A stretch of 64,000 nt of DNA from Acidobacteriota bacterium. Its GTDB lineage: Bacteria > Acidobacteriota > Terriglobia > Terriglobales > Acidobacteriaceae. Positions within the stretch are counted from its first letter, which is position 1. Every line of letters starts with the position of its first letter. The stretch spans positions 182,185-246,184 of the forward strand of contig JACPYL010000018.1 in the NCBI GenBank assembly GCA_016196065.1. The letters are read 5' to 3'. The notes below the pieces were generated by a model that saw only the letters and a program-made list of their open reading frames with translations, was not told where the DNA came from and made no database searches. Made by a program: the position numbers and the translations under genes. Positions 2,251 through 27,209 of this stretch are shown here, in pieces.

Positions 2251-3351
2251 ATGAGGCTGCATATCGCCGCTCTGCTCGCTGCTCTTTCCATATTCGTGCC
2301 CGGTGCGGTTGGCGCACAGCGAATTAAAGTGATCGTCGATCAGGACGCGCGTGGCCCCGCGACCACTGACATGCAGTCAATCCTGATCTTCCTTCAGTCT
2401 GACAAATTTGATGTGCTAGGCGTGACCACGGTCAGCGGCGATCAGTGGGTCAAAGAAGAGACCCGGCGCACGCTACGACTGCTCGAAGTCGCCGGCCGAA
2501 CCGATGCCCCCGTCATTGAAGGCGCGGAATTTCCGCTGCTCAACTCCAAAGAAGAAAGCGAGCGCTGGGAATCCCTGTACGGCAAGTTCCGCTACAAGGG
2601 CTGTTGGAGCGACTTCTCCAACCGGCCTGCCAGCACGCCACCCGCATTTCGCGAAGGGTATCACGAGCCGAACATCGTGCCGCCGCTGGTGGAGGGCGAA
2701 CCCAACGCCAAAGCCCTCAACGAAACTGCGGCGCATTTTATCGTTCGCATGGTCCATCAGTATCCCGGAGAAGTGGTGATATGGGCCGGCGGCCCGCTGA
2801 CCAATGTCGCGCTCGCTTTGCGACTGGATCCGGAAGTGGCAACACTCGCGAAGAGCCTGGTCCTGATGGGAAGCGGTATGTATTCGGACAACGGCGGTAT
2901 CGGAGGCGTGGATGGGCGGCGCGAATTCAACTGGTGGTTTGATCCGGAAGCAGTACGTATCGCCATGCGGGCGCCTTGGAAGAAAATTGTCATCACACCC
3001 ATCGATGTCTCGGTTAAGACAAAACTAGGCGCAGAAATCCGGTCCGCCATTGCGAAGGCCGACACTCCGGTGGCGCGCTACCTTACCGCTTACTCTGTTG
3101 ATAGTTTCATGTGGGACGAGCTTTCCGCGGCGGCGATGGTCGATCCTTCGATCATCACCGGGCAGAAGGAGCTTTACGTCGATATCGACATCGACCACGG
3201 TCCCAGTTACGGACAAACGCTATTTTGGAGTCCGGGCACAGTGCTTCCTCCCTATGAGAGGCTGGCCACCGTGCAGTTCGATGTCGACACTACGAAGTTG
3301 TACGATCTGTACATTAAATTGATGACGCAGCCGCCACGATCCGTAAAATAG
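2251..3351 (+). CDS. exported nucleoside hydrolase-like protein, non-canonical motif class (DQD..GP..TD)
   Basis: GGGAGG SD and a Sec-type leader (MRLHIAALLAALSIFVPGAVGAQ). The N-terminal motif is VIVDQDARGPATTD. Other IUNH motifs are REFNWWFDPEAV and MWDELSAAAMVDP. Confidence 0.85.
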   Translation: MRLHIAALLAALSIFVPGAVGAQRIKVIVDQDARGPATTDMQSILIFLQSDKFDVLGVTTVSGDQWVKEETRRTLRLLEVAGRTDAPVIEGAEFPLLNSKEESERWESLYGKFRYKGCWSDFSNRPASTPPAFREGYHEPNIVPPLVEGEPNAKALNETAAHFIVRMVHQYPGEVVIWAGGPLTNVALALRLDPEVATLAKSLVLMGSGMYSDNGGIGGVDGRREFNWWFDPEAVRIAMRAPWKKIVITPIDVSVKTKLGAEIRSAIAKADTPVARYLTAYSVDSFMWDELSAAAMVDPSIITGQKELYVDIDIDHGPSYGQTLFWSPGTVLPPYERLATVQFDVDTTKLYDLYIKLMTQPPRSVK

Positions 3352-3390: not shown

Positions 3391-4554
3391 ATGGGCGAAC
3401 AACGATGGTCCGGAATGACACGACGGAGATTTGTAACCTCGTCCGCAGCAGTTTTGGCGGCCAGTGGATTCGCCGGTGAACTCAATGCCTTCGGGCAGTC
3501 GACCGCAAGTCGCGGCCCTTTCCGCGTCATTATCGACACCGACCCCGGCGTGGACGACGCGCTCGCCCTGTTGCTGGCCATGCGCTCGCCTGAACTGAAG
3601 ATTGAAGCGATCACTCCGGTGGCAGGCAATGTGCCCCTTGAATTGACGCTGCCCAACGCCCTGCGCCTGGTGGAAATCGCAGGTCGTACGGATATCCCCG
3701 TCGCAGCCGGTGCCCGAATGCCGCTCGTCCGCCGCCTGGTAACCGCGACGTATGCGCATGGCGAAAATGGACTTGGCGGCGCGGTATTTCCCGATCCGAC
3801 GATCAAGCCGGTCGCGGAGCCTGCTGCCGAGTATATTCGCCACATCGTCCGCAAGTATCCGCACGAGGTAACGCTAATCACGCTTGGCCCGCTAACGAAC
3901 ATCGCCACGGCGTTGAACAGCGACAACGAGCTTGCAGGCATGGTTCGCGGTCTCACCATGATGGGCGGTTCGCTATCGGGAGGCAACATCACTCCCGCAG
4001 CGGAGTTCAATATTTACGTAGACCCGGAAGCGGCGCGCATTGTTTTTCAGTCGGGGATTCCGATCACCATGGTCGGCCTCGACGTAACCCGTAAGACGTC
4101 CCTGACGGAGGACCACGTCCGCGTATTGGAAGCTGCACAGAATCCAGTCAGCCAGGCGGCTGGCAAGATCGGCCGCAATGCGATCAATCACAATCGCGAG
4201 CGAGGATTCCTGGTCGGACCCAACATGCATGACTCACTCGCCGTCGCTGCATTCCTCGATCCGACCATTCTGAAGTGGCAGGAATACTATGTCGATGTCG
4301 AGACGACGGGTGAGATGACTTCTGGCGAAACGCTCGGCTATAGTCCCGTTGCAGGCGATTTGAAGCGTAAGCCAGGGACGGAGAAGGACGTGCAAGCTAG
4401 CATGACGATTCGGGGCTCAGCGCCGACTCTTGCCAGCACGAAAACGTCGCCGGTGGTGCGAGACAAGTACGTGCCGAACACCAACGTGGGTGTCGACGTA
4501 GACTCAGCACGATTCTTCGATCTATTAATTGGACGGCTGGCAGGGAAAGCGTAG
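3391..4554 (+). CDS. Tat-exported inosine/uridine-preferring-type nucleoside hydrolase (canonical motif)
   Basis: AAGGAG SD and a twin-arginine leader (MTRRRFVTSSAAVLAASGFAG). It carries the canonical IIDTDPGVDDALAL motif, plus AEFNIYVDPEAA and MHDSLAVAAFLDP. Confidence 0.9.
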   Translation: MGEQRWSGMTRRRFVTSSAAVLAASGFAGELNAFGQSTASRGPFRVIIDTDPGVDDALALLLAMRSPELKIEAITPVAGNVPLELTLPNALRLVEIAGRTDIPVAAGARMPLVRRLVTATYAHGENGLGGAVFPDPTIKPVAEPAAEYIRHIVRKYPHEVTLITLGPLTNIATALNSDNELAGMVRGLTMMGGSLSGGNITPAAEFNIYVDPEAARIVFQSGIPITMVGLDVTRKTSLTEDHVRVLEAAQNPVSQAAGKIGRNAINHNRERGFLVGPNMHDSLAVAAFLDPTILKWQEYYVDVETTGEMTSGETLGYSPVAGDLKRKPGTEKDVQASMTIRGSAPTLASTKTSPVVRDKYVPNTNVGVDVDSARFFDLLIGRLAGKA

Positions 4555-4601: not shown

Positions 4602-5690
4602 GTGAATATGCGATTGGGCCGAATCCGGGTGCTCCTACTTACTGCGTTGCTGACCTCCTGTTTTCTGTCATGGGGACAGGGCAAGCGCAAGATCATCATT
4701 GACCAAGACGCCGCTGGACCAGCCGGCACCGACCTGCAGTCAATTCTCTTGTTGATTCAATCCCCGCAGACTGAAGTGTTGGGCGTGACGGTCGTTACGG
4801 GCGATGGCTGGCTGAAGTCCGAGGTCGCGCACACGTTGCGCCTGCTCGAACTCATCGATCGTACCGATATTCCGGTCGTGCCCGGAGCCGAGTATCCTCT
4901 GGTTCGAACAAAAGCCGATACGGAACTGTGGGAAAAGCGCTATGGCTCCGTCGAGTGGCTGGGCGCATGGACGCCAAGGTTCTACCACCCGCCGGACCAA
5001 CTTGGAGAGATGCCGGAAGGCAAGCCTACCACCAAGCCGTCCGACGAAGATGCCGCGCACTTCCTGATTCGAATGGTGCACAAGTATCCCCACCAGGTGT
5101 CGATCTATGCGGGCGGCCCGATGACGAATCTCGCTCTCGCAATTTCGATTGACCCCGATTTTGCCGGGCTAGCGAAAGAGTTGTTCTTCATGGGTGCAAG
5201 TTTCAATCCGCAAACCGCCGACCCCGAGTTCATCAATAATCCGCGTCACGAATTCAATATCTGGTTCGATCCTGAAGCAGCCCACATCGTTCTGCGTGCG
5301 CCATGGAAGAAGATCATTTGCACGCCGGTGGACATTTCCGTTAAGACGCGCATGACGCAAGCGATGATTGACCGCATCAAGGCCGGTAACTCACCTGCTG
5401 CCCACTACGTCGGCACCTATGCACGCCTGTTTGGAGAATACAACTACTTATGGGATGAGCTTTCAGCGGCGGCGTGGCTAGATCCCAGCCTGATTACGAA
5501 ATCAGAAACCCGCTTCATGGATGTGGACCTAAGTCGCGGCGCGGGTTACGGAAACATGCTGACATGGAGTAAAGAGGCGAAACCCAATCTTGACGTGCAG
5601 CCGGTGGAGATACAGGTGGATCTCGATACCGAAAAGTTCTACACCATGTTTGTGGACATGCTGAAAGCACCGACTCCGCCCAAGAACTAG
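4602..5690 (+). CDS. exported nucleoside hydrolase-like protein, non-canonical motif class
   Basis: GTG start at 4602 (alternative ATG at 4608). The leader is RIRVLLLTALLTSCFLSWGQG. Motifs are IIIDQDAAGPAGTD, HEFNIWFDPEAA and LWDELSAAAWLDP. Confidence 0.85.
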   Translation: MNMRLGRIRVLLLTALLTSCFLSWGQGKRKIIIDQDAAGPAGTDLQSILLLIQSPQTEVLGVTVVTGDGWLKSEVAHTLRLLELIDRTDIPVVPGAEYPLVRTKADTELWEKRYGSVEWLGAWTPRFYHPPDQLGEMPEGKPTTKPSDEDAAHFLIRMVHKYPHQVSIYAGGPMTNLALAISIDPDFAGLAKELFFMGASFNPQTADPEFINNPRHEFNIWFDPEAAHIVLRAPWKKIICTPVDISVKTRMTQAMIDRIKAGNSPAAHYVGTYARLFGEYNYLWDELSAAAWLDPSLITKSETRFMDVDLSRGAGYGNMLTWSKEAKPNLDVQPVEIQVDLDTEKFYTMFVDMLKAPTPPKN

Positions 5691-5717: not shown

Positions 5718-7004
5718 TTAGTGGCCTGGAACTGCGCTCTTGGCCAGCCGTTCGGCTTCACGCTGCTCTGCCGAAGCAAGCGCCGCACGGCCCGTTTGTG
5801 AGTAGACGGCCGCCATCCCGATATGCGGCTCGGGCTCCTGAGGCCTCATTTTCGATGCTTCCTGGAAATAGCGTAATGAATCGGGGTACTGCCCAATCTC
5901 TCCGGCCTTGTACCCCAGTTTAAGGATGGAGAGGAAGAGCAGATCCGAAGTCTCTTGATCCTCTGGATTCAAATCGTGAGCGTGGCGCAGCGTCTGATAG
6001 GCAGGTAAGTCGTCCCCGAGTTTGGCCAGAATCTTCCCGTCTAAAGACACGAGTTGAGACAGATCTGGCCAGCGTGCAACCGCTGGGGCGATCGCGCTCT
6101 TCGCTTCCTCGAAACGCTGCAACTGGTAATATGCCAGCGCGACGTTGAACTGCATCTGCGGCGATTGCGGAGACAGTTCGGCGGCACGCTGAAGCGGCTT
6201 AAGTGCAGCTTCTGGATCTCCATGCTGCCCATAGATCGTACCTAGCGCAGTGAGCTTGTCGGCATTTTCTGGATCGTAGAGTTGCTCGCAGACCGCATGT
6301 GCTTCCTCGCGAGGCCCGTGATCCAGTTTGAGTGCGCAGTCTAATCTCAGTTGACTCTCCGTCGTATCCCGCTGTCGCTGCTCGTTCGACTGCGTCATCA
6401 CTCGCTGCGCTTCGTCTTCTCGTCCTTGTTTGCGATACACCATGCCCAGCTGGTAAGAGACACGAGCATCATGAGGATTAGTGCGGACCGCTTCCGTCAG
6501 CCACTTCTCTGCACCGGCAAGGTCGCCCTGCTTGAAGCAGGCAAAGCCGAGATAGTAAGTCGTATCAGGGAAGGGTGGATCGGCTGCGGCTTTTGTCAGA
6601 TTGTCAATCGCTCCGGTGAAGTTGCGCCCGTCGAGGTCGAGCCGGCCCAGGTAATACAGGACGTTAGGATGATCGCCCGCTTCACGGCGAACGATTTCAA
6701 ACTCTCTGCGAGCCTCCGCCGGTTTATGCAATTCAAACAGGGCCACACCCAGTGGAAAGCGCGCCCGCAAGACCAACTTGGGATCCAGCTTCAAGGCAGC
6801 TTGAAACTCAGCGGCGGCCACGTCGTATCGATCATTCTTGAGCGCGTTGTAGCCCTTGCCAATGTGCGCTTCGGGCGTTTCCTTGGACCTTGGCGAAGCA
6901 GTATGAGAAGCCTGTCCGGTGAGAACAACGGACGAAGCCACGATGGTCAGCAGCAATATACCGCGCAGAATGGGCCTGTTAACGATGTGAAAGCCGGCAA
7001 TCAT
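5718..7004 (-). CDS. TPR-repeat protein with N-terminal membrane anchor/leader
   Basis: The track ORF runs to 7049. I prefer the ATG at 7004 (MIAGFHIVNRPILRGILLLTIVASSVVLTGQ), which lies 4 nt after the upstream stop at 7009-7011. Multiple TPR units are present (AAAEFQAALKLDP, ALKPLQRAAELSP). Confidence 0.75.
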   Translation of the reverse strand: MIAGFHIVNRPILRGILLLTIVASSVVLTGQASHTASPRSKETPEAHIGKGYNALKNDRYDVAAAEFQAALKLDPKLVLRARFPLGVALFELHKPAEARREFEIVRREAGDHPNVLYYLGRLDLDGRNFTGAIDNLTKAAADPPFPDTTYYLGFACFKQGDLAGAEKWLTEAVRTNPHDARVSYQLGMVYRKQGREDEAQRVMTQSNEQRQRDTTESQLRLDCALKLDHGPREEAHAVCEQLYDPENADKLTALGTIYGQHGDPEAALKPLQRAAELSPQSPQMQFNVALAYYQLQRFEEAKSAIAPAVARWPDLSQLVSLDGKILAKLGDDLPAYQTLRHAHDLNPEDQETSDLLFLSILKLGYKAGEIGQYPDSLRYFQEASKMRPQEPEPHIGMAAVYSQTGRAALASAEQREAERLAKSAVPGH

Positions 7005-7008
7005 CGCA

Positions 7009-8322
7009 TCATCTCCGGCCAGCCTTCGCCAAGAGAGCGCTAGCTGCATCCTTACTGGCAGCGACTTCGCCTGCGGTCGCGGTCGTCACGAAATCGGAGA
7101 CTAACTTCTCGCACTGCTCCCTGACCTGGTCATAAGCAGTTGGATCTTGCCCGCGGACGGCGAGCAACTCCTTGAGCCAATGTTTGCCGAAACCGGCGTG
7201 CATGGTTTCGTCAGCCCAGTCGAAATCCATGTCATGCTCGCTGACGGCATCACCATAAGCGTGGAACAGTTGTGCCCGAGCGGGTTTATGGCGGATATTC
7301 TTGGTCTCAAAAAAGTAGAGCATGCCCAAGAAATAGATCGGATCTTCGCCAGAAGCACTTTCGTAGATATAGGTGCCAAGGGGGATCTCGGCGGGATCCA
7401 GGCGCCAGGCCATCAAACGCTCGTAGCCCATGCGGCAATGGCGAGACTCGTCATAGGTCCAACGCGCAGCGTTATGAATCCATTCCCATGGCAGCACGTC
7501 GGCAAACGCGTTCAGCATTGCGCCGCCAGCCTCGATCGCCCAGACTTCATTCAAGTGGCTGATCGCGGATCGCATTTGTAGTCGCATTCCTTCTCCGTAG
7601 GGATAGTTGGAATCGACAATGTCGGGCCAATAAAAGCGGCAGGACAGAAAGCGTGGATCGCGACCGGGCCGGCGAGGCGTAGCGTAAGCCTTCGAGTGCG
7701 ACAGAGGCCCCATCAACGCCGTAGACGCCGACGGCTCAACGCCCACGCCACCGACGGCCGCGAGTCGACTTGCTACTGCATCAGTCCAAACCATGGCGTC
7801 TGCGCGAAGTTCAGGGTTAAGTGAAAGCGCGGATTCCAACCACTCCTCGTATGCCCTGATCTGTTCTGCCTTCTCGGAAAGTGCTAGAGACAAGAAACGG
7901 TGAGTGGGACCATCCGCGATGGAGTCTGACGCCTGAAGATAGCCCTGGTACGCGTTGCGCAACGCGGGCAGCAGTACGTTGCCAATGCTCATCAGAAAGG
8001 CCGGGACAGACGGCGAATCCTTGACCGCGCTGAATAGTTCGATCAACGCATGGTCTGCGCCTTCTTCTTCGAGCAAGCGGCTCGGGAAGCGTAATTCGAA
8101 GACGCGCTCCCGCAGAGCATGTGCAGTCTCGGAGTTTTGCCACACGAAGCGAGCCAAGCCAGTCTTGATTCCGAGCGGGGCCACAACCGGGATCCACGCC
8201 GCCTCGGTGGTCAGCAATGAACGCTCACAGAAGAAGAATCTCTTCAGCAGCTGAGCGGTATCGAACCGCATCCATCGAGCGCGGGGCTGCTCACTGACTA
8301 AGTACTCGGAAGGTTGTGGCAT
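7009..8322 (-). CDS. ferritin-like (di-iron carboxylate type) protein of unknown function
   Basis: 437-aa ORF with three E-x-x-H motifs: NSETAHALRER, DESRHCRMGYE and ADETMHAGFG. It also has isolated conserved-looking Glu residues (FCERSL, NEVWAIEAGG), as expected in a four-helix-bundle di-iron site. No leader. Tightly linked to ribokinase upstream and the TPR gene downstream. Confidence 0.55.
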   Translation of the reverse strand: MPQPSEYLVSEQPRARWMRFDTAQLLKRFFFCERSLLTTEAAWIPVVAPLGIKTGLARFVWQNSETAHALRERVFELRFPSRLLEEEGADHALIELFSAVKDSPSVPAFLMSIGNVLLPALRNAYQGYLQASDSIADGPTHRFLSLALSEKAEQIRAYEEWLESALSLNPELRADAMVWTDAVASRLAAVGGVGVEPSASTALMGPLSHSKAYATPRRPGRDPRFLSCRFYWPDIVDSNYPYGEGMRLQMRSAISHLNEVWAIEAGGAMLNAFADVLPWEWIHNAARWTYDESRHCRMGYERLMAWRLDPAEIPLGTYIYESASGEDPIYFLGMLYFFETKNIRHKPARAQLFHAYGDAVSEHDMDFDWADETMHAGFGKHWLKELLAVRGQDPTAYDQVREQCEKLVSDFVTTATAGEVAASKDAASALLAKAGRR

Positions 8323-8386
8323 AGGTCGTGTGCCGGGTTCAGCTCAAAGCGCCGAGTGCATCCCCTCGGCATTCTTATTCTAAAGC

Positions 8387-9361
8387 TCAAGGTGGATCGA
8401 TCGCACCCGCAGGAAACCAAGCGGGCTGCGAAGCCTCGGCTCGCCGATAGTATGCCCGAACCTCATCGCGAGTCGGCAATGCAGGGATCACACCCTCTCT
8501 TGTAACCGCCAAGCCGCCGGTAACGACGGCAAACCGAACCGCGTCTTCAAGACCAGCTCCACAGGCGAGTGCCATGGCTAGTCCGGCATTGAAGGAGTCT
8601 CCAGCGCCGGTCGTGTCCGTTGCGGTCACGTGAATCGCGGGAATGTGCGTTGCCGACGACTCGGTCACGATCAGCGCGCCCTTCTCGCCCAATGTCATCA
8701 CGACCTGCCTGACTCCAATGTCGATCAACTTTTTCGCGATTACTTCAGGGGGGACATCGGCTCCTGAAGCCAACCCGGCAATCACTTTCGCTTCGGTCGC
8801 GTTTGGCGTCAGGATGTCGACGGCCTGCAAGATCGAAGGCGGAAGCGGCCTGACCGGGGCCGGATTCAGAATTGTGATTGCTCCATGCGCGCGCCCACGC
8901 ACCATTGCCGCCTCCGCTGCTGCCACCGATATCTCGAGTTGAGTCAGGACGACCCTTGACGATTCGAATGCGCCTGCAGCCTGCGTCACATCGGCGGCCG
9001 TCAACAGATTGTTCGCGCCAGGATCGATCACGATGCAATTGTTGCCACTGGCAGCCTCTACGACAATAAATCCAACTCCGGTAGGCGCATCACCGGTTTG
9101 TTTTACATGAGCAACGTCCACACCTTCGTTACGATAGAGCCCCAGAGCCGACTCGCCAAAACTGTCGTTGCCAATTCTTGCCACAAAGCTGACTCTGGCC
9201 CCCAAACGAGCACAGGCCACTGCCTGGTTGGAACCCTTACCGCCGAAATCCACTCGATAGCCGGTTCCCAGCAGAGTCTCGCCACGGCTGGGCAGACGGT
9301 CCACCTTCATGGTGAGTCCCGTCGCGTAGCTACCGACAACCGTGATTTTAGGCACGCTCAC
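8387..9361 (-). CDS. rbsK: PfkB-family ribokinase
   Basis: Motifs are GGKGSNQAVACARLGA (ribokinase signature 1) and the C-terminal DTTGAGDSFNAGLA (anion hole / catalytic Asp). Length is 324 aa. Confidence 0.85.
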   Translation of the reverse strand: MSVPKITVVGSYATGLTMKVDRLPSRGETLLGTGYRVDFGGKGSNQAVACARLGARVSFVARIGNDSFGESALGLYRNEGVDVAHVKQTGDAPTGVGFIVVEAASGNNCIVIDPGANNLLTAADVTQAAGAFESSRVVLTQLEISVAAAEAAMVRGRAHGAITILNPAPVRPLPPSILQAVDILTPNATEAKVIAGLASGADVPPEVIAKKLIDIGVRQVVMTLGEKGALIVTESSATHIPAIHVTATDTTGAGDSFNAGLAMALACGAGLEDAVRFAVVTGGLAVTREGVIPALPTRDEVRAYYRRAEASQPAWFPAGAIDPP

Positions 9362-9429
9362 GCATCATTCTCCGGGTCGAGCGGTAAGCCTACCACAGCA
9401 TTCCTGGCCTTCCAGATTTCGCGCCAACG

Positions 9430-10629
9430 TTAGTGTTGAGCGCGGGCAAGATCTCGAATCTGGTTCAAGTATCCAACATAGATGGGAATCGGAATATCCG
9501 GCGAGTCCCCGTCATTCAGGAAATGTTCGAGCCGGATTTCCATCGGGATCGAACGGATCACTTCGCCGAAACGCGCCATCTGCAGATACTTCACGCGCCA
9601 GATCTCGAGCATCAGGGAACGATATTCTTCACTGATGAAATTCATCCGCCGATCGCCGAGATAGATGGAATCGAAATGGTGATCGGCAAGTTTCTGCCGA
9701 ATCGGATCACCCGGCATCGAGAACGCGTAGGTCAGGTGAAAAAGATCCGCGAGATCGCCCCACAACACCTTCTCTTCGAATGCGCTGAAGCGGAATGATG
9801 CAGCACCACGTTGCTGAGCCACCCTGGCGTGATCGCTGGGCGGCAATCCATGGCGGCCAAGTTCTTCCCGAAACCAGTGCAGGCGGTCCCGTGTCAGATT
9901 GTGGCGCAGAAATTCGACGGCATACGCGTTGGGAAGATATAGCTTTGGATCGCTGTCCAGACGCGCGATCCACGCCGCCCAGTCTCTCTGATCGAGTGCA
10001 TCAAGTAAATCCGTAAGGTCGGACAATTTTGTATCCGGGTGAAACTTCACTGCCTGCCAGAAATGTTCCGTGGAGTCGTAGGTTGCGCCATAGAGGTCGA
10101 TGCCCTCCGCGATCGGATACCAGTTTGAAAGCACCCGACCACTCATCGACGACGAGGCGCTCCAGCAATTCACGGAATGCTTCCACTTCTGCTGGACGGC
10201 CAGAAATGCCTCGGCATAGCCCGGTGGAGTCGACTCCTTGACGCGGGCAAGCGCTTGGCGAAGTTCGTCACTAGTATGGGTCAATAACGCTTCCAGCGGA
10301 CGTTCGTCGGCCATCGACACCACGCGACTCTCAATTCCACGACGCAGCAATTCCCGCCCCAGGTTCGATCGCTCCTCAGCCGTAATACCGCCCGGCCAGC
10401 GCCCGGTCTGGGACTCGATGTAGGGAAACATCTCTGCCAGCGACTTGAACTCTATGAACCCGTGTAGAGCAAACGGTATGGGGTGGCCATCTTTCAGAAC
10501 AACCGTCGACGGAGTGACAATCTCATCGAGCGATATCTGTGGAGTTTGAGCGAACACTGTTGCCGTCAGAATGAGGGCACACACTGCCAATGAAAAGACG
10601 CACAAAAAGTTTCGATACCATACCTTCAT
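9430..10629 (-). CDS. exported NADAR (YbiA/DUF1768)-like N-glycosidase domain protein
   Basis: Sec leader MKVWYRNFLCVFSLAVCALILTATVFAQ. LSNWYPI...YDSTEHFWQAVKF (nt 10042-10074) matches the E. coli YbiA core FSNFAAWPI...WPTSEHYFQAQKF. The distal KYLQ...RLEHFLNDGDSP resembles YbiA KFEQ...LVEHTENDAYWGDG. Confidence 0.55.
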   Translation of the reverse strand: MKVWYRNFLCVFSLAVCALILTATVFAQTPQISLDEIVTPSTVVLKDGHPIPFALHGFIEFKSLAEMFPYIESQTGRWPGGITAEERSNLGRELLRRGIESRVVSMADERPLEALLTHTSDELRQALARVKESTPPGYAEAFLAVQQKWKHSVNCWSASSSMSGRVLSNWYPIAEGIDLYGATYDSTEHFWQAVKFHPDTKLSDLTDLLDALDQRDWAAWIARLDSDPKLYLPNAYAVEFLRHNLTRDRLHWFREELGRHGLPPSDHARVAQQRGAASFRFSAFEEKVLWGDLADLFHLTYAFSMPGDPIRQKLADHHFDSIYLGDRRMNFISEEYRSLMLEIWRVKYLQMARFGEVIRSIPMEIRLEHFLNDGDSPDIPIPIYVGYLNQIRDLARAQH

Positions 10630-10715: not shown

Positions 10716-10744
10716 TTGACGCTCCCCGGCACGAGTGTTAGATT
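10716..10744 (+). promoter_or_regulatory. sigma70-like promoter candidate for the FG-GAP gene
   Basis: TTGACG (10716-10721), a 17-nt spacer, then TGT-TAGATT (extended -10, 10736-10744). A GGAGAAG SD lies immediately before the ATG at 10798. Confidence 0.4.
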
Positions 10745-10797
10745 TTCGATTCCACGAGAGTGAAACTGGGAGCTTTCCTCTGAGTCGACCGGAGAAG

Positions 10798-13700
10798 ATG
10801 CGCCATCTCGTCGACGTTCCCGCAGCCGACACTGGCCGACGGAATTTCTTGATCCGATGCTGCCAGGGACTTTCTGCAGCATTCTTGCCAGCTAGCTTAC
10901 GCGGCCTTGCGTTCCCTTCCGTCAACCTGGCGATCACAAGCGGAGCGCTATCTACAGAGGGCGATTATCATTTACATCCGCATTACCGAAGCCCCACCTC
11001 CCTCGATGCCACGTTGCTCAAGGCGAAGGCCGGACTCGACGAATTCATCACCGAGAAGTATGCGTACGAAATCTCTGCGATTCTTGCGGGCTGGAGTGCG
11101 AGCCTGCTGCGATCGTCGCAGGACGTAAGCGCGATTGCTGGACGGCTCGCGCCGGGTTTTCTCGGAGCGTCACTACAACCGTTGGAGTCGCGCCAGTTGC
11201 GGCCGGGCCCAGCGGTCGAAGCGTTCCAGCACAAATTTTCAACGGACCTTTCCCTGCAAGCGGATGCGTTCCTTCAAGACCTGCGGTCTTGTCTGAATAC
11301 GTTTACGGGACTCTTGACTGCTGATTTTCAGATCACCACCATTGACGCTGGGCCATTGTCTCAAAGCCCACAGAGTTCATCACAGGTCAAGACTCGTATT
11401 CGCTATGAACTGGTAGGTACGGAGCGCAACTTCTATCGTGCACAGCGGGTTGGCTACTGGGAGATGCAGTGGACTTCAGATTCACCGGGCTCGTTCCTCT
11501 TGCACAGTTGGCACGCTCTCGAAGAGACAAACAGCCGCTCGGCCAAGCCGATCTTCGTGGACATCACAAACAATGCACTGAGGAACAACCCATCCTATTC
11601 ATCGCACTTACAGCGCGGGACTGACTACTGGCGCACCGTGCTGGATGGTGCCTGCGGCATTGATATCTACGGGCACAATGGCATCGCGGTCGGCGATTTC
11701 GACAGCGATGGCTTTGACGATCTGTACGTTTGCCAGCCAGCTGGCTTGCCCAACCGCCTCTATCGAAATCGCGGTGACGGAACCTTCCAAGACGTTACGG
11801 AGACTTCGGGTGTGGGCGTCCTCGACAATACTGCGTGTGCCCTTTTCGTCGACGTCGATAACGATGGCCGCCAAGACCTGATTGTCGTCTGCGCCAGTGG
11901 GCCTTTGTTGTACTTGAATCAAGGCAACGGACAATTTCGCCAAAAGCGGGATGCGTTTCACTTCGCAACTCCACCGCAGGGGACGTTCACGGGAGCGGCT
12001 GTCGCAGACTATGACCGGGACGGGTGGCTCGATATTTATTTCTGTCTCTACGTCTACTACCAGGGCGCCGATCAATACAAATATCCGTCTCCTTATTACG
12101 ACGCCCAAAATGGGCCCCCGAATTTCCTGATGCGCAATCAGCGTGACGGCACGTTCCGCGATGTCACTGGACAAACTGGCCTCGACAAGAACAACACACG
12201 CTACAGCTTTTGCTGTGCCTGGAACGATTTCGACGGTGACGGCTGGCCCGACCTGTATGTGGTCAATGATTTCGGCCGCAAGAATCTCTACCGCAACAAC
12301 GGCGACGGCACTTTCACCGACATTGCAGATCAGGCTGGCGTGGCCGATGTCGGCGCGGGTATGGGTGTCAGCTGGCTTGACTATGACAACGACGGTCGTC
12401 CTGATCTATACGTCGCAAATATGTGGACAGCCGCCGGCGAGCGCATCGCCCAGCAGGAAGCCTTTCAGGCACATGCATCCGCGGACGTCCGGGCTCGCTA
12501 TCGCAAACATGCAATGGGCAATTCGCTGTTCCACCACGATGGATCGGATGCACGGTCCAATCGTTTTCATGACGCAACGTCGTCGGCTGGAGTAGGGATG
12601 GGCCGCTGGGCGTGGTCGAGCGACGCGTGGGACTTTGACCACGATGGATTTTCGGATCTTTATGTCACCAACGGCATGGTTTCCGGCCCATCGCGCGACG
12701 ACTTGAATAGTTTTTTCTGGCGACAGGTTGTTGCGAAGTCTCCCGCGGAGGCCAAACCATCCCGTGAATACGAACAGGGCTGGAATGCGATCAACGAGTT
12801 GATTCGAGCGGACGGCACCTGGAGCGGATACGAACGAAACGTCTTTTATGCAAATAATCGTGACGGCACATTTTCCGATGTCTCCGGCGCGGTCGGAATT
12901 GATTTCCTGGAGGATGGCCGGGCCTTCGCGCTTGCTGACTTCGATCACGATGGCCGACAGGAAGTGTTCGTCAAGAATCGGAATGCCCCGCAGTTGCGAA
13001 TTTTACAAAACGTGCTGGACGATATGCCTCCGTCGATTGCATTTCGCCTGGAGGGATCGAAGAGTAACCGGGATGCGATCGGCGCAGTAGTCACACTGGA
13101 AACAGCATCGGGCCGGCAGATGCGCACTCTGCAGGCGGGGTCGGGGTTTCTCTCGCAACACAGCAAGGATGTGTTCTTCGGCCTTGGCAACGTTAAGGAC
13201 GTCGTGAAAGCGTCGATCCTCTGGCCCAGTGGAACGAGACAAGAACTTCATGAGTTACCGATCAACCATCGAATATGGATCAAGGAAGGCTCTGAGCCAT
13301 CGCGAATCGAACCATTCTCACTCAAGGCGAAATCAGTAGAAACGAACGGGACGACTGGCGCCTCTGCTTCACGCACCCAGCCTGATGACGCTGCCTTGCC
13401 AGTCACCATCGAAACATGGCTATTGGCGCCCGTTTCCGCGCCGGACTTCTCCCTGCTCGACCTCGCCGGGGAGTCCCGCACTCTGGCTTCATTTCGCGGG
13501 CAGTCTGTGCTCCTTAGTTTCTGGACGACTGAGTCCGCAAGCAGCCAGGCCGACATGACATCCTTGGAACGCGCGCGCACGCAATGGGCAGCGCAAGGAT
13601 TGCATGTTGTCACAATAAACATCGATAGTGGCAAGTCACAAACGGATATTGAGAAGTTCGCTCGCGAGCAACGTCTGACTTTCCCAATTCTTCGTATATC

Positions 13701-14700
13701 CGACGATGTGGCTGGCATCTACAACATCGTCTACCGTTACATCTTTGATCGCCATCGCGACCTGACCTTGCCAACATCGTTCCTGATAAGTGAAACGGGA
13801 GATATCGTAAAGATCTATCAAGGCACCCTGAACGCAGAACACGTCGAACAGGATTTTCGACATCAGCCGCACACAGCCGCGGAAAGGCTTGCGAAAGCGC
13901 TGCCGTTTCCGGGCGTGACGGACAGCACTGAGTTCGGACGCAATTATCTTTCTTATGGTTCTGTGTTCTTTCAACGCGGCTACTACGATCAGGCGGGCGC
14001 TGCATTCGAACGGGCTCTGCGCGATGATCCTGATAGCGCAGAGGCCCTCTATGGCATTGGGAGTGTGTATCTCAATCAGCAGAATACAGCTGAGGCTCGT
14101 CAGAGTTTCGAGCGAGCTACGAAGCTGCGCGCAAGTTATCCGGACACACTGGCGAATGCATGGAACAACCTGGGACTTCTTTCCGCACGCGAAGGCCGCA
14201 CTGAAGAAGCAATCGGATATTTCAAACAAGCTTTGCAATTGAGCCCCGACCATGTTGTCGCGCTGGAAAACATGGGCAGTGCGTACCGTCAATTGAAGCA
14301 GTGGGATGACGCACGGAGTTTCTTTGAGCGTGCGCTTGCCATCAGTCCCGACGATGCCGAGGCCAACTACGGACTAGGCATGGTGTTCGCCCAGACTGAT
14401 GATACGAACCACGCTCTCGATCATTTCCAAAGAGCGCTACGATCCCGACCGGCGTACCCCGAAGCGCTCAACAATCTGGGGATTCTCTACCTGAGAACAC
14501 AGCGGCGCGACGAGGCAGTAGCGAAATTTGAAGAGTGCATCCGAGTGGCGCCCCCCTTTGACCAGTCGTATTTGAACCTTGCGCGGGTGTATGCGTTGGA
14601 GCAAGCTTCGGACAAGGCTCGCGCCGTTTTGCTGGAACTTCTCAAGCAACGTCCAGGACATCTGCAAGCGCAGGAGATGTTGCAACGGTTAGGGCGATGA
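10798..14700 (+). CDS. FG-GAP/VCBS repeat + ASPIC/UnbV + thioredoxin-fold (cysteine-less) + TPR multidomain protein
   Basis: ATG at 10798 is preferred over the track GTG at 10735, which lies inside the promoter candidate. RRNFLIRCC is a Tat-like leader. There are seven D-x-D-x-DG-x-x-D repeats (DFDSDGFDDLYV through DFDHDGRQEVFV). The UnbV motif is NRDAIGAVVTLE..GSGFLSQ. A redoxin-like block follows (APDFSLLDLAG..VLLSFWTTESASSQ), then C-terminal TPRs. Confidence 0.8.
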   Translation: MRHLVDVPAADTGRRNFLIRCCQGLSAAFLPASLRGLAFPSVNLAITSGALSTEGDYHLHPHYRSPTSLDATLLKAKAGLDEFITEKYAYEISAILAGWSASLLRSSQDVSAIAGRLAPGFLGASLQPLESRQLRPGPAVEAFQHKFSTDLSLQADAFLQDLRSCLNTFTGLLTADFQITTIDAGPLSQSPQSSSQVKTRIRYELVGTERNFYRAQRVGYWEMQWTSDSPGSFLLHSWHALEETNSRSAKPIFVDITNNALRNNPSYSSHLQRGTDYWRTVLDGACGIDIYGHNGIAVGDFDSDGFDDLYVCQPAGLPNRLYRNRGDGTFQDVTETSGVGVLDNTACALFVDVDNDGRQDLIVVCASGPLLYLNQGNGQFRQKRDAFHFATPPQGTFTGAAVADYDRDGWLDIYFCLYVYYQGADQYKYPSPYYDAQNGPPNFLMRNQRDGTFRDVTGQTGLDKNNTRYSFCCAWNDFDGDGWPDLYVVNDFGRKNLYRNNGDGTFTDIADQAGVADVGAGMGVSWLDYDNDGRPDLYVANMWTAAGERIAQQEAFQAHASADVRARYRKHAMGNSLFHHDGSDARSNRFHDATSSAGVGMGRWAWSSDAWDFDHDGFSDLYVTNGMVSGPSRDDLNSFFWRQVVAKSPAEAKPSREYEQGWNAINELIRADGTWSGYERNVFYANNRDGTFSDVSGAVGIDFLEDGRAFALADFDHDGRQEVFVKNRNAPQLRILQNVLDDMPPSIAFRLEGSKSNRDAIGAVVTLETASGRQMRTLQAGSGFLSQHSKDVFFGLGNVKDVVKASILWPSGTRQELHELPINHRIWIKEGSEPSRIEPFSLKAKSVETNGTTGASASRTQPDDAALPVTIETWLLAPVSAPDFSLLDLAGESRTLASFRGQSVLLSFWTTESASSQADMTSLERARTQWAAQGLHVVTINIDSGKSQTDIEKFAREQRLTFPILRISDDVAGIYNIVYRYIFDRHRDLTLPTSFLISETGDIVKIYQGTLNAEHVEQDFRHQPHTAAERLAKALPFPGVTDSTEFGRNYLSYGSVFFQRGYYDQAGAAFERALRDDPDSAEALYGIGSVYLNQQNTAEARQSFERATKLRASYPDTLANAWNNLGLLSAREGRTEEAIGYFKQALQLSPDHVVALENMGSAYRQLKQWDDARSFFERALAISPDDAEANYGLGMVFAQTDDTNHALDHFQRALRSRPAYPEALNNLGILYLRTQRRDEAVAKFEECIRVAPPFDQSYLNLARVYALEQASDKARAVLLELLKQRPGHLQAQEMLQRLGR

Positions 14701-14731: not shown

Positions 14732-15703
14732 TTAGTAGGCCTTGGCTACGAAGATGATCGCCAGGCAATAAAACGCGAACATGCCGAGCAGATAAATCTT
14801 CCCCCTGCCGGGCGCTCCGGCAAACTCTTTCCATGCGAACACACCCCAGAGAGCGCCGACCATGGGGGCCGACTGCCCAACCGCGTAGGAGATCGCAAAA
14901 CCCGTTGCGCCGCCGGCGACCACATTGAAAACCGTGCCGGTCGTCCAGATCGCGCCGCCGAGAAGACCGAGCAGATGTCCGGAAGCGGGCGCGCTGAAGA
15001 AGCCGGAGAAATCGACCGGTTCACCAGCGAGCGGCTTCTTCATGAAGTAGAGATTCCAGATGAAGCAGGAGAGCAGGGCTCCCAGCGTGAGGAACACGAC
15101 GGAGCTGTAGGGCGTAAGCGCATGGCCACGGGTCGCGCCGTAGGCGACAAAGGGATTCCATAGTCCCATCAGGACACCCGACACGATGCAAATCACGATG
15201 CTCTTGCGCGTGGTGGTGCGGCCGCCGGCGAGGCTGCCGAAGGCTTTGCCGTCGAGGATGACGGCAATCAGTGCGCAAGCAACGCCGGCTGCGAGGAACA
15301 GCATGTTGCCCTTTGGCTGCAGAATGTAGCTGAGCAAGGTGCCGACTACGAGCGCGATTCCGATGGAAACAGGAAGCGCAACCGCCAACCCGGCCATATC
15401 AATGGCGGCCACCAGCAGGAGGTTCGCTAGATTGAAGATCGCGCCACCGACCATGGTCCAGAGGATATTCGAGGTATCGGCCGAGCGCACGTTATTGAGG
15501 AAACTGGTGGCGTCGTTGCCCGTGCTGCCCATGGTGAAGGCGAGGAGGAGCGACATCAGGAAGATGCCGACCGCGTAATCCCAATAAAAAAGTTCGAAGC
15601 GATAGTTCTTGACGCCCTTGTAGGTATTGGCCCAGGAGCCCCAGCACATGGCGCTTCCGATCATCATCAACAGGGCGATTCCAAAACTCGGGGGTATATA
15701 CAT
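14732..15703 (-). CDS. DMT-superfamily (GRP/RhaT-like) sugar permease
   Basis: ATG at 15703 (MYIPPSFGIALLMMIGSAMCWGSW) is preferred over the track start at 15814, which overlaps the upstream gene. About 10 hydrophobic spans are visible. It lies 55 nt downstream of an exported nucleoside hydrolase on the same strand. Family assignment is by recollection only. Confidence 0.5.
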   Translation of the reverse strand: MYIPPSFGIALLMMIGSAMCWGSWANTYKGVKNYRFELFYWDYAVGIFLMSLLLAFTMGSTGNDATSFLNNVRSADTSNILWTMVGGAIFNLANLLLVAAIDMAGLAVALPVSIGIALVVGTLLSYILQPKGNMLFLAAGVACALIAVILDGKAFGSLAGGRTTTRKSIVICIVSGVLMGLWNPFVAYGATRGHALTPYSSVVFLTLGALLSCFIWNLYFMKKPLAGEPVDFSGFFSAPASGHLLGLLGGAIWTTGTVFNVVAGGATGFAISYAVGQSAPMVGALWGVFAWKEFAGAPGRGKIYLLGMFAFYCLAIIFVAKAY

Positions 15704-15758
15704 GGTTGCTCCTCGAAAGCGATCAGGTGTTCCGGGATGAAGCCCGGACACAACGACA

Positions 15759-16847
15759 CTACTTGCCGCGAATTCGTGTAACGAACATCTCCAGAAAACG
15801 GTCGGCATCAACATCGACGCAGACTTTGGCGTTCGGCTCGACTTTGTCCGCGCCTTCGATCAAATATCGATCACCGTGCAGCACGTTGCGCTCGACATAT
15901 CCGTGTCGATTGGCCACGGTTTCGCCGCGCGTGAATTCGCCACGTGTTTCCACGTCGACATGCATCTCCGGGGCTTTCACCAGGGTCGCATCAATGGCGA
16001 CTCCGACCGCGAGTGGATCGTACATGGGAGATCCCGGGGAGCCAAATTTTTCCGAGAGATCGATCAAATATCCCGCCACCTGAACCATGAAGTCGTTGAT
16101 CGGCCCGTGAGTCTGGCCGAGTTGTGCGAGGTATCTTCTCGAGAAGAGCGTCTTGTCGCCGACGTCGAGGCCAACCATGGTGAGGCGCCAACCTGCCTGA
16201 AAAACAATTTGCGCGGCCTCGGGGTCGTTGTAGATATTCGCCTCGGCTGCGGCGTTCACATTGCCACCCGTAATCGACCCGCCCATGATGATCACTTCCT
16301 TCACCAGGGGAACGATCGACGGATCCTTGAGAACGGCGAGCGCGATGTTGGTCAGCGGCCCTACGGGCACAAGTGTGAGTTCGTGTGGCGCCGCATGCAC
16401 CATTTGGATGATCAAGTCGGGGCCGTACCGTCCGTCCACTTTGCACTTACTGGGCGGCAGTTCGACATTTGCCAAGCCATTCTTGCCGTGCCAGAACTCG
16501 GCAGTGATCAATTTCTGAAAAAGTGGATGTTGCGCTCCCGCCGCAATCGGAATATCGCAGCGATTGGCGAGCGAGACCATCCGCAGAGCGTTTTCCAGGC
16601 CTTGTTGTGCAGTCACATTGCCCGGCACAACCGTGATGGCACGGACATCGAGTTCCGGCGAATTCAGGGCCAGCATCAACGCCATGGCATCGTCGGTACC
16701 CGGGTCGGTATCGAAGATCACCTTTCGCGTGGCACCCGCCGCGGGCGCAACCAGCAGTGCTACCAGACACGCGAACAAAACGACGGCGGAACTGATTGTT
16801 CGCTGAAATAGAGCGCTGCCTTTCATGCTTACCAAAGCATCCTCCAC
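15759..16847 (-). CDS. exported nucleoside hydrolase (canonical IUNH motif)
   Basis: GTG at 16847 or ATG at 16826 (MKGSALFQRTISSAVVLFACLVALLVAPAAGA leader). Motifs are VIFDTDPGTDDAMAL, AEANIYNDPEAA and MYDPLAVGVAID. Confidence 0.9.
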   Translation of the reverse strand: MEDALVSMKGSALFQRTISSAVVLFACLVALLVAPAAGATRKVIFDTDPGTDDAMALMLALNSPELDVRAITVVPGNVTAQQGLENALRMVSLANRCDIPIAAGAQHPLFQKLITAEFWHGKNGLANVELPPSKCKVDGRYGPDLIIQMVHAAPHELTLVPVGPLTNIALAVLKDPSIVPLVKEVIIMGGSITGGNVNAAAEANIYNDPEAAQIVFQAGWRLTMVGLDVGDKTLFSRRYLAQLGQTHGPINDFMVQVAGYLIDLSEKFGSPGSPMYDPLAVGVAIDATLVKAPEMHVDVETRGEFTRGETVANRHGYVERNVLHGDRYLIEGADKVEPNAKVCVDVDADRFLEMFVTRIRGK

Positions 16848-17067
16848 GACTTTAAGAATCGCGCCTTAACCTATTCCCGCCTTGGCCGAGTGTCAAGGTG
16901 AAAGTCGTATCGCGCGGTGGTCAACCATCGCCAACGCGGCGCTTTTGGCGCAGATCGGCCCAGATACATATTTCCTCGCATCTGCCGTAAAATGGCACAG
17001 CGTCACGCCCGCGAAGGCCTTTGTTTTCTCCGCCTTCATTTCGCGGACCGAGAGCGCGGGGTTTGTT

Positions 17068-18138
17068 ATGACAGCCGATCACGACCAACAGCGCGGGATT
17101 GCGCATGACATAGTTCAGCGCGACGTGCGGCGCGACGTTCCCCACGCCGCATCACCGGAGAATGTCATTGCCGATCTGGCCGGGCGTCCCCTGTTTCGCA
17201 ATACCGGAATCCCACTCGACGAACATTGGGTTAAAGACGTACGGGTCAACACCAGCGCGGTCGAACGGCGAGCCCAGTCCCAGGTTGCGCGAAGAACCGT
17301 TAAGAAGGACTGGCAAGCGGCGTGGCTACTGCGTTCGATCACGTGCATGGATCTGACCACGCTCTCCGGGGATGACACTGACGAACGAGTCCGCCGGTTG
17401 TGCGCGAAAGCACGGCAGCCGATTCGGCAGGACCTCGTCGAAAAATTGGGCATCGCAGGACTCGACATCAAAGTCGCGGCTGTGTGCGTGTATCACACTT
17501 TTATTGAAACCGCCCTGCACGCGCTCGAAGGCACGCGCATCCATGTTGCCGCCGTCTCCACGGGATTTCCTGCTGGCCTTTCGCCGCTCGCAGAGCGGGT
17601 CGCGGAAATTCGTCGGTCCGTAGAGGCTGGAGCGCATGAAATTGACGTCGTCATCACGCGGGCCCATGTTTTTGGCGGCCATTGGCAGGCGCTCTACGAC
17701 GAAGTTGCCGCGTTCAAACACGCCTGCGGCACGGCGCACATCAAAGTAATTCTAGGAACGGGCGACCTGTTGACTCTCCGCAATGTTGCGCGAGCCAGCG
17801 TCGTGGCCATGATGGCCGGCGCCGACTTCATCAAGACATCGACCGGCAAAGAGCCGACCAATGCAACCTTACCGGTGGGATTGGTGATGACACGCGCCAT
17901 CCGCGAATACGCGCAACGTACTGGTATGGCCGTCGGCTTCAAGCCAGCGGGCGGCATTCGCACGGCGAAACAGTCTCTCGATTGGCTAGCCATGATGAAG
18001 GAAGAGCTTGGCCTCTCGTGGGTGCGCGCAGAAATGTTTCGTTTTGGTGCGAGCGGATTGCTAGGCGACATCGAGCGGCAACTCGAACATCACGTGACGG
18101 GACGCTACTCGGCCGAGAATCGCCACCCGCTGGCGTAG
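17068..18138 (+). CDS. deoC: deoxyribose-phosphate aldolase, long (eukaryote/DERA-like) form
   Basis: ATG at 17068 is preferred over the TTG at 16882. Long colinear matches to human DERA as I remember it include ARRTVKKDWQAAWLL, MDLTTLSGDDT, STGFPAG, EIDVVI, MMAGADFIKTSTGKE (Schiff-base Lys), VGFKPAGGIR and HHVTGRY. Confidence 0.9.
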   Translation: MTADHDQQRGIAHDIVQRDVRRDVPHAASPENVIADLAGRPLFRNTGIPLDEHWVKDVRVNTSAVERRAQSQVARRTVKKDWQAAWLLRSITCMDLTTLSGDDTDERVRRLCAKARQPIRQDLVEKLGIAGLDIKVAAVCVYHTFIETALHALEGTRIHVAAVSTGFPAGLSPLAERVAEIRRSVEAGAHEIDVVITRAHVFGGHWQALYDEVAAFKHACGTAHIKVILGTGDLLTLRNVARASVVAMMAGADFIKTSTGKEPTNATLPVGLVMTRAIREYAQRTGMAVGFKPAGGIRTAKQSLDWLAMMKEELGLSWVRAEMFRFGASGLLGDIERQLEHHVTGRYSAENRHPLA

Positions 18139-18164
18139 TCGGCAGGAAAGAATCGAGCACACGA

Positions 18165-22227: not shown

Positions 22228-22239
22228 GGCACGCATTCC

Positions 22240-23358: not shown

Positions 23359-23364
23359 GTAGAT

Positions 23365-24330: not shown

Positions 24331-24372
24331 TTTGCGCTTCTGATATATTGACTCTCTCTCGGAGGTGCTTCC

Positions 24373-27195: not shown

Positions 27196-27209
27196 GAAGT
27201 ATGCAACTC

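Follow-up and report, generated by a model that had tools for sequence, protein, structure and literature searches.

Proteins of the NADAR superfamily are known as cytoplasmic N-glycosidases that serve in damage control of the riboflavin pathway and in the reversal of guanine ADP-ribosylation during toxin-antitoxin and phage conflicts. Their known substrates, 5'-phosphoribosylamino-pyrimidines and ADP-ribosyl-guanine, are both N-ribosides on exocyclic amines and carry a substituted 5' position. Here we describe X399, a protein encoded in a 64,000-nucleotide (nt) stretch of the genome of an Acidobacteriota bacterium (assembly GCA_016196065.1, contig JACPYL010000018.1, positions 182,185 to 246,184 of the forward strand; this whole stretch is called the window, and coordinates are counted from its first letter). 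An earlier note made from the letters alone, referred to as the original prediction, had proposed that X399 is an exported NADAR-like N-glycosidase which heads an operon with a ribokinase, a ferritin-like protein and a tetratricopeptide repeat (TPR) protein.

Among the described systems closest to X399, YbiA of Escherichia coli (2B3W; PF08719/DUF1768) is a cytoplasmic damage-control enzyme of riboflavin synthesis (PMC9503650). YbiA and X399 share the co-linear motifs [FL]SN[FW], S/T-E-H-aromatic-aromatic-Q-A-x-K-[FY], M..(W/L)R.K[FY].Q, L-E-H-x-x-N-D and G-Y-L..(I/L)R. Unlike YbiA, which consists of 160 amino acids (aa), X399 has 399 aa with a predicted signal peptide, an N-terminal extension of ~120 aa and an insertion of ~100 aa between the core helices, and its family lacks a match to the PF08719 hidden Markov model (HMM), a conserved Glu on the last strand and the WG that follows ND.

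The DarT1-associated and stand-alone NADARs with an 'extended YbiA-like fold' (G. lovleyi 8BAT and P. nicotianae 8BAU; BC4488 family) add an N-terminal extension to the YbiA core and, in P. nicotianae, also an insertion within the fold (PMC11543638). These proteins have the Glu/Lys pair in common with X399. They are cytoplasmic antitoxins or stand-alone ADP-ribosyl-guanine enzymes with an Asp on the last strand, whereas X399 has a predicted export signal, catabolic neighbours and no ADP-ribosyltransferase (ART) partner in the loci examined. The phage and giant-virus NADARs (gp30.3 type and others) are small intracellular proteins tied to NAD/ADP-ribose conflict systems (PMC9503650), and they gave the best matches to X399 in the BFVD library, with an identity of only 11-15%. 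Phage NADARs carry a His at the last-strand position (PMC11125620), and an invariant His369 lies in that strand of X399. Outside the superfamily, the Rus polysaccharide utilization loci (PULs) of Bacteroidetes encode a TonB-dependent transporter, one or more exported nucleoside hydrolases, a permease, a single ribokinase or a pair of them, and a regulator of the LacI type. They also have a variable complement of other ribose-releasing enzymes, among them ADP-ribosylglycohydrolases and NAD hydrolases (Glowacki et al., bioRxiv 10.1101/574913).

Domain layout and conserved residues of X399

The X399 gene and the parts of its product are as follows (all on the minus strand).

9430..10629, minus strand: X399, a 399-aa precursor and divergent NADAR/YbiA-superfamily protein (open reading frame, ORF, and translation; stop codon at 9430-9432)
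10549..10629, minus strand: predicted Sec signal peptide, residues 1-27 (MKVWYRNFLCVFSLAVCALILTATVFA; hydropathy and cleavage-site heuristic)
10195..10548, minus strand: N-terminal extension, residues 28-145, outside the YbiA core (AlphaFold2, AF2, model; outside the region aligned by hhalign)
9952..10194, minus strand: first half of the NADAR core, residues 146-226 (hhalign to YbiA residues 16-56 and beyond; AF2)
10042..10074, minus strand: catalytic-helix motif STEHFWQAVKF, S186-F196 (Glu188 and Lys195 align with E48 and K55 of YbiA)
9640..9951, minus strand: family-specific insertion of ~104 aa, residues 227-330 (AF2 secondary structure; Foldseek column counts; hhalign gain on removal)
9433..9639, minus strand: second half of the NADAR core, residues 331-399 (hhalign of residues 338-373 to YbiA 95-130)
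9511..9534, minus strand: last-strand motif RLEHFLND, residues 366-373, followed by GDSP (E368 aligns with E125 of YbiA)

In the first half of the core, a β strand (NCWSAS) leads through the LSNW loop and a β hairpin to the catalytic helix; the second half runs from two helices (LMLEIWRVKYLQ..) through the last strand RLEH and the ND motif to the C-terminal helix (VGYLNQIR). The motifs quoted in the original prediction are present, STEHFWQAVKF exactly at the stated nt 10042-10074, LSNW at residues 167-170 and RLEHFLND at residues 366-373. The insertion of ~100 aa that splits the domain had been overlooked there.

Residue conservation was counted in the family alignment A4, which comprises 119 sequences and includes a second clade gathered by a search seeded with P0124, a member 48% identical to X399. 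E188, H189, F190, W191, Q192 and K195 are invariant in 119 of the 119 homologues, so that the Glu and the His of the SEH motif, whose conservation the original prediction had proposed to check, do not vary. S168, N169, M340, K347, H369, D373, L388 and R392 are invariant as well, and most of the invariant residues align with columns that are invariant or near-invariant in YbiA-like NADARs. A Glu and a Lys on the first helix form the catalytic pair conserved across the superfamily, E88/K95 in the E. coli C7 NADAR corresponding to E48/K55 in YbiA (PMC11543638). The spacing between E188 and K195 of X399 is seven residues, the same as that of the catalytic Glu and Lys of NADARs.

The residue on the last strand defines the NADAR subfamilies, with Glu in YbiA, Asp in BC4488 and His in the phage proteins (PMC11125620). 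In the X399 family the column aligned with E125 of YbiA is occupied by D in 79 of the 119 sequences, L in 18, E in 13, S in 8 and A in one; the window protein has E368 there, next to the invariant H369. As such, this column appears to fit none of the three described subfamilies cleanly.

Profile comparison with NADAR families

The reference YbiA sequence is identical to PDB 2b3w_A and seeded the YbiA-like alignment. When the X399 family was compared by hhalign with a narrow profile of YbiA only, the probability (Prob) was 13-15% with P 0.002, and the aligned blocks were exactly those that the original prediction had named. The score of 29.2 exceeded the null of 15.2 +/- 2.8 and its maximum of 24.6, none of 200 column shuffles reaching it. 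The C-terminal halves, aligned separately, were co-linear, with X399 338-373 on YbiA 95-130 (P 0.016; 6 of 200 shuffles reached the score). Since NADAR was chosen after the motif had been seen, the narrow-profile P-values alone are not significant on a database-wide scale. With a more diverse family alignment, the N-terminal block fell out of the top match to the narrow NADAR profile.

The strong signal appeared only once the NADAR profile was widened to 21 sequences, YbiA-like proteins plus 10 phage NADARs (effective number of sequences, Neff, 3.97). The comparisons by hhalign gave the following values.

Alignment A1 against the diverse NADAR profile: Prob 81.7%, P 1.1e-5, score 42.8
Alignment A4 against the diverse NADAR profile: Prob 65%, P 5.9e-5, score 38.6
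Alignment A4 without mature residues 200-303 (100 columns, YbiA 27-130): Prob 94.7%, P 5.8e-8, score 51.0

The shuffle nulls for the diverse profile had means of 12.7-14.5 and a maximum of 22.3, reversed profiles scored 10-13, and 0 of 200 shuffles reached the observed scores (z 10 and 15). Taken over the comparisons with observed scores of 29-51, 0 of 200-300 shuffles reached the observed value, the null maximum was 25.3 and reversed profiles scored 8.6-13. The climb of the score with profile diversity is as expected of true homology.

Structure model of X399

A first AF2 model came from an alignment of little depth, all of whose sequences were at least 71% identical; its predicted local distance difference test score (pLDDT) was 62.7 and Foldseek returned only noise, and it was discarded for a model based on A4. 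The AF2 model of X399 from A4 reached a pLDDT of 94.6 and a predicted template modelling score (pTM) of 0.91. In this model the elements follow one another as a strand, a hairpin, the helix with EHFWQAVK, two helices, the insertion, the long helix LMLEIWRVKYLQ, a further helix, the strand RLEH and the C-terminal helix, and this order mirrors the YbiA fold as defined in PMC11125620 and PMC9503650. The N-terminal extension is confidently modelled as a mixed α/β region. The insertion of ~104 aa is helical with one hairpin and includes the invariant LWGDLAD at residues 289-295.

The Foldseek search of the PDB covered 350,542 chains and gave no match at E<=0.001. YbiA (2b3w) was second in rank but highest in probability (prob 0.75; template modelling score, TM, 0.51 on the target; 254 columns), and all other PDB matches had prob <=0.14, among them the G. 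lovleyi NADAR 8bat. In BFVD, the top three matches were phage proteins of 158-292 aa whose NADAR identity is unverified (prob 1.0, E 0.018-0.066, TM 0.61-0.64), and two lower matches, from Mimivirus LCMiAC02 and Marseillevirus LCMAC102, are annotated as NADAR. A core interrupted by a large insertion would account for approximately 250 aligned columns against targets of ~160 aa. A structure model had been proposed as a check in the original prediction, and YbiA and viral NADARs are its top structural matches by probability.

Several results weigh against assigning X399 to the NADAR superfamily. hmmscan found neither PF08719 nor any other Pfam-A domain in X399 even at E<=10, an outcome that the original prediction had named as a refutation of its own claim, and no NCBIfam match was found. 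Neither phmmer with X399 nor hmmsearch with the family profile matched any of the PDB sequences, 2b3w and 8bau included; with phmmer against 1.84 billion cluster representatives every match belonged to the family itself, mostly as fragments, and BLASTP of X399 against YbiA was not significant (E 0.22-0.32). The Foldseek E-values are marginal, from 0.018 to 1, and the best hhalign figure (94.7%) depends on a post-hoc splice whose boundaries were taken from the structure model. The third catalytic position is not conserved, the last-strand Glu being replaced by L, S or A in 27 of the 119 members. The D..WG.G motif is lacking after the last strand, where D373 (aligned with D130 of YbiA) is invariant but is then followed by GDSPDIPIP; an invariant WGD sits at residues 290-292, inside the insertion. 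While the claimed NADAR likeness finds no PF08719 match, the hhalign comparisons, the AF2 model with its Foldseek matches and the invariant E188 and K195 support remote homology. Taken together, these results lead us to regard X399 as a true though highly diverged member of the NADAR superfamily that fits none of the described subfamilies cleanly.

The family comprises ~3000 clusters at 90% identity, all of them annotated as 'hypothetical' and none with a Pfam domain. Members are encoded in no fewer than 294 species genomes of GTDB, of which the best 80 are all metagenome-assembled genomes (MAGs) of Terriglobia; one member comes from Thermoanaerobaculia, and the family is known only from Acidobacteriota. 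Two full-length divergent members, P0124 and P0128, came out of the phmmer scan of cluster representatives, in which several other seemingly divergent matches were discarded as frameshifted junk. The MAG CAZGSU01 (L036 and L067) encodes two paralogues of X399, 73% and 69% identical to it, and the copies that are linked and those that are not linked to the gene island described below may therefore be paralogous lineages rather than orthologues.

Predicted export signal

The N-terminus of X399 (MKVWYRNFLCVFSLAVCALILTATVFA, followed by QT) has the basic residues K2 and R6 and a hydrophobic core of 12 residues with a mean Kyte-Doolittle value of 2.91. The small-residue site VFA precedes Q28, and cleavage is predicted after residue 27. 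Here and for the other proteins, leaders were called by hydropathy and a cleavage-site heuristic in place of a dedicated predictor, so that an uncleaved signal anchor would look alike. Of the relatives, 153 have a complete N-terminus; the hydropathy of the h-region is >=1.6 in 146 of these, and a small-residue site is present in 152. The hydrophobic stretch is thus kept across the family while its sequence is not, which is typical of signal peptides. A lipoprotein signal (LAVC) was considered for X399 and rejected, position -1 being Val.

We infer that the leader is cleaved and that the mature protein is periplasmic, as the leader heuristic predicts. The Sec leader of the original prediction is supported on this heuristic basis by the conservation of a leader-like N-terminus across the family. 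As for the processing 'outside the cell' that it had suggested, export remains the predicted fate and the compartment is most likely the periplasm, since this is the simplest meaning of export in a diderm acidobacterium. The searchable literature yielded no description of a NADAR that is exported, and the sole co-mention of a signal peptide and NADAR concerned another domain, ARPP.

Gene layout and the nucleoside/ribose island

Three further genes follow X399 on the minus strand.

8387..9361, minus strand: ribokinase, 324 aa, GTG start (TIGR02152, PfkB; predicted cytoplasmic, no leader)
7009..8322, minus strand: DUF455 ferritin-like protein, 437 aa (PF04305; predicted cytoplasmic, no leader)
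5718..7004, minus strand: TPR protein (TPR matches in Pfam; hydrophobic N-terminal segment, predicted exported or anchored)

The ORF coordinates agree with the four same-strand genes of the original prediction, separated by gaps of 68, 64 and 4 nt. The last gap presumes that the TPR gene starts at the ATG at 7004. Its longest ORF is 5718-7049, and with the ATG at 7049 the DUF455 and TPR ORFs would overlap by 41 nt; the start at 7004 is favoured because the resulting 428 aa fit a homologue of 422 aa in locus L001. No terminator-like hairpin was found in the three intergenic gaps, and the four genes are probably co-transcribed. The three annotations also held. The ribokinase matches the TIGR02152 equivalog over its full length (303.4 bits; cutoff 299.65) and PfkB in Pfam (E 1.9e-62). 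The DUF455 protein matches PF04305 with 39.3 bits (gathering cutoff 34.3) over residues 238-396 of 437 only, that is, in its C-terminal half, and has two ExxH motifs, DESRH and DETMH; at the level of sequence, such a pair is the signature of ferritin-like di-iron proteins. A search for a solved relative of the DUF455 protein in the PDB found none.

The first 30 kb of the window contain six genes for nucleoside hydrolases of the IUNH family, two PfkB kinases and a ureide-permease/sugar-transport-like gene, together with a DeoC-like aldolase, an aldehyde dehydrogenase, a CN-hydrolase, a cytosine/purine permease and amidohydrolases, and form a nucleoside/ribose catabolic island. The genes next to the X399 run are the following.

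2251-3351, 3391-4554 and 4602-5690, plus strand: three IUNH genes, convergent to the X399 run (PF01156, E 1e-51 to 1e-94)
10735..14700, plus strand: giant fusion protein of FG-GAP/UnbV_ASPIC, AhpC/TSA and TPR domains, divergent from X399 (Pfam)
14732-15814, minus strand: ureide-permease/sugar-transport-like membrane protein (Pfam)
15759-16847, minus strand: fourth leader-bearing IUNH (Pfam; leader heuristic)

The three convergent IUNHs appear to use three different export routes, as judged from their predicted N-termini: the product of 2251-3351 has a Sec-type leader, that of 3391-4554 has a twin-arginine leader (MTRRRFV) that suggests Tat export of a folded hydrolase, and that of 4602-5690 has a lipobox-like LTSC that suggests a lipoprotein. 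The pair of the permease-like gene and the fourth IUNH (15759-16847) also occurs in relatives. In the window the longest ORFs of the two genes overlap by 56 nt, and the permease probably starts later (MYIPPSF...).

Gene neighbourhood in relatives

The neighbourhood of X399 homologues was examined in 80 Terriglobia species loci, 67 Terriglobia-type metagenome loci and 17 loci of a divergent clade that had enough flanking sequence. Among the 80 loci, the island is common only to the closest relatives of the window, L003, L004, L007 and L008 and the short contig L005. A conserved four-gene operon was rejected, the ribokinase (RbsK) and DUF455 genes being absent from L001, L004 and L005. In these three loci the TPR gene comes directly after X399, with a 4-nt overlap in L001. 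The RbsK-DUF455 gene pair travels together in L003, L007, L008, L056 and L152, and the role of the DUF455 protein may be connected with ribose metabolism. The FG-GAP/ASPIC giant gene is divergently paired with X399 in L001, L003, L004, L007 and L008, and FG-GAP/ASPIC genes also lie beside homologues of the divergent clade (L095 7223-8644, L109 63-1043, L113 4129-5616 and L116 2-2089).

Outside the island, X399 is linked to nucleoside genes in several other arrangements. In L009, L024, L029, L040 and L056, X399 has a different IUNH as its immediate neighbour, verified as PF01156 (~290 bits) for L009, L029 and L040, and a permease-IUNH pair adjoins X399 in L037. In the clade that is ~50% identical to X399, an IUNH of the exported type is immediately downstream in 11 of the 17 loci. 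L098, L099 and L100 have the order LacI, X399 homologue, IUNH, IUNH and PfkB, with a 4-nt overlap of the X399 and IUNH genes in L098 and L099, and an adjoining divergent unit of genes for a TonB-type outer membrane protein (OMP), an IUNH and a ureide-permease-like protein. In L098, leaders are predicted on the X399 homologue, the OMP and three IUNHs (two downstream and one upstream), and there is none on the PfkB kinase. In L095, the X399 homologue and a gene for a xanthine/uracil permease have 4 nt in common, with FG-GAP/ASPIC, IUNH and TonB-receptor genes alongside. The linkage is taken as non-random from the immediate adjacency and the gene overlaps in several different arrangements, no background IUNH density having been computed. 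In the Terriglobia contig L002 (7296-7928 and 6130-7191), a single case, the X399 homologue lies beside an isochorismatase-family gene and an AAA_33 kinase gene. The isochorismatase family includes nicotinamidases, and these neighbours hint that NAD or nicotinamide riboside may be involved.

Compared with the Rus PULs, L098-L100 have exactly the Rus layout, with the X399 homologue in the variable slot. They differ in that they belong to another phylum, that no SusD partner was identified and that a NADAR-like accessory enzyme is absent from the list given for the Rus PULs. The window itself contains leader-bearing IUNHs, a permease-like gene and two PfkB genes of the Rus set, the full set being present in L098-L100 of the divergent clade; no TonB-type receptor gene is present among the window ORFs examined, and no adjacent LacI gene was identified near X399.

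Proposed role of X399 and alternative explanations

On balance, we think that X399 is a Sec-exported, diverged NADAR that acts in the periplasm as an N-ribosyl hydrolase accessory to nucleoside and ribose scavenging. Its hydrolase activity and the class of its substrate are deduced from sequence comparison and gene context, and both are putative. X399 would hydrolyse bonds between ribose C1' and nitrogen in the periplasm, as an N-ribosyl, ribosylamine or ADP-ribosyl-type glycosidase, and the exported IUNHs and X399 would free ribose (or ribose phosphate) and bases from external N-ribosides. The ureide-permease/sugar-transport-like carrier would import the sugar, and the cytoplasmic ribokinase encoded immediately downstream of X399 would phosphorylate the imported ribose. 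X399 would then fill the variable slot for a ribose-releasing enzyme in a Rus-like layout and complement the IUNHs. Given the chemistry of the known NADAR substrates, the candidates for X399 would be ribosylamines, NAD-derived ribosides and ADP-ribosyl conjugates, and not ordinary nucleosides.

More tentatively, X399 could represent the first exported NADAR branch, specific to Acidobacteriota, in which the chemistry has moved from cytoplasmic damage control or antitoxin duty to extracytoplasmic nutrient harvest. Such an enzyme might free ribose or ribose phosphate from N-ribosyl compounds that IUNHs cannot cleave, with the N-terminal extension and the insertion forming a new substrate-binding site. 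Candidate substrates beyond the reach of IUNHs would include NAD-derived ribosides, ADP-ribosylated necromass, ribosylamines and modified nucleosides in soil organic matter.

The coupling to IUNHs and ribokinase that the original prediction had claimed is present in the window and arises independently in the clade ~50% identical to X399; most Terriglobia orthologues are unlinked, and the four-gene operon is lineage-specific. In an alternative explanation, X399 would be a periplasmic protein of NADAR fold whose role in Acidobacteriota is a general one, unrelated to nucleoside scavenging, and its position in the island would be accidental and lineage-specific. Most Terriglobia orthologues, which are 66-75% identical to X399, lie among unrelated genes: the neighbours are unrelated in ~68 of the 80 Terriglobia species loci and in ~60 of the 67 Terriglobia-type metagenome loci, nucleoside-type neighbours occurring in only 7 of the latter. 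These unrelated neighbours include HAD-fatty acyl reductase, chromate transporter, DUF2127, ABC and GNAT genes, and no neighbour family is found in more than 22 of the 80 loci. The RbsK-DUF455 pair itself appears to be a lineage-specific insertion between X399 and the TPR gene, and nucleoside genes are likewise missing from L093, L094 and L096 of the divergent clade. However, an IUNH gene is immediately adjacent in L009, L024, L029, L040, L056, L161, L165, L166 and L168 and in the 11 of 17 divergent-clade loci, and in some loci an IUNH gene or one for a xanthine/uracil permease overlaps by 4 nt, so that we regard a general role as unlikely.

X399 may otherwise strip ADP-ribose from targets in the cell envelope, as an exported counterpart of the NADAR antitoxins that confers immunity against secreted ADP-ribosyltransferase toxins and does not serve nutrition. 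Characterised NADARs and the YbiA-family proteins tested in PMC11125620 hydrolyse ADP-ribosyl-guanine in vitro (PMC11543638, PMC11125620), and the catalytic Glu and Lys are retained in the X399 family. However, no ADP-ribosyltransferase-like neighbour was seen in ~175 loci by Pfam and tblastn context, a survey without a dedicated ART search, and the recurrent partners are catabolic (IUNH, PfkB, permeases and LacI); an immunity function seems quite improbable.

To much the same degree we doubt that X399 has lost catalysis and serves as a periplasmic riboside-binding or scaffold protein, possibly with TPR or FG-GAP/ASPIC partners. The L, S or A at the third catalytic position in 27/119 sequences, the WG missing after the last strand and the recurrence of TPR and FG-GAP/ASPIC proteins as neighbours would suit such a protein, but E188, H189, K195, H369 and D373 are invariant across sequences only 50% identical, which is typical of an active site under selection. 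That the NADAR resemblance is convergent or a product of chance on an unrelated fold is very improbable: HMMER-level matches are lacking, the Foldseek E-values exceed 0.01 and NADAR was picked after the motif had been seen, but three co-linear blocks contain invariant residues, hhalign rises with profile diversity to P 5.8e-8 with shuffled and reversed controls far lower, and unbiased structure searches of two libraries rank NADAR/YbiA best by probability.

If X399 is an exported NADAR that assists nucleoside and ribose scavenging, a fold and a chemistry would be assigned to a sizeable 'hypothetical' family in a dominant soil phylum, and the NADAR superfamily would reach the periplasm. The loci for ribose and nucleoside scavenging, which matter for how necromass from nucleic acids and cofactors is turned over in soils and peat, would gain a new type of enzyme. 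The family also illustrates that a NADAR branch can escape the current HMM libraries and still be recovered by structure and profile-profile methods.

Other genes of the window

Beyond the fourth IUNH, positions 16882-20549 (plus strand) encode a DeoC-like aldolase with its domain from residue 152, followed by a 955-aa aldehyde dehydrogenase with its domain from residue 202. The ORFs as listed overlap, which leaves their start codons uncertain, and in L001 the island is flanked by the same pair. The block at 21292-29697 contains a PfkB kinase, two IUNHs (one of 321 aa without a leader), a CN-hydrolase and a cytosine/purine/uracil permease, as well as a luciferase-like monooxygenase (minus strand) and an amidohydrolase, and looks like a pyrimidine or purine catabolic module. 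Past the island, positions 33971-40597 (plus strand) encode a 7-bladed lactonase, an amidohydrolase, a GH2 beta-mannosidase-like protein and a LacI-family regulator, which are apparently unrelated to it.

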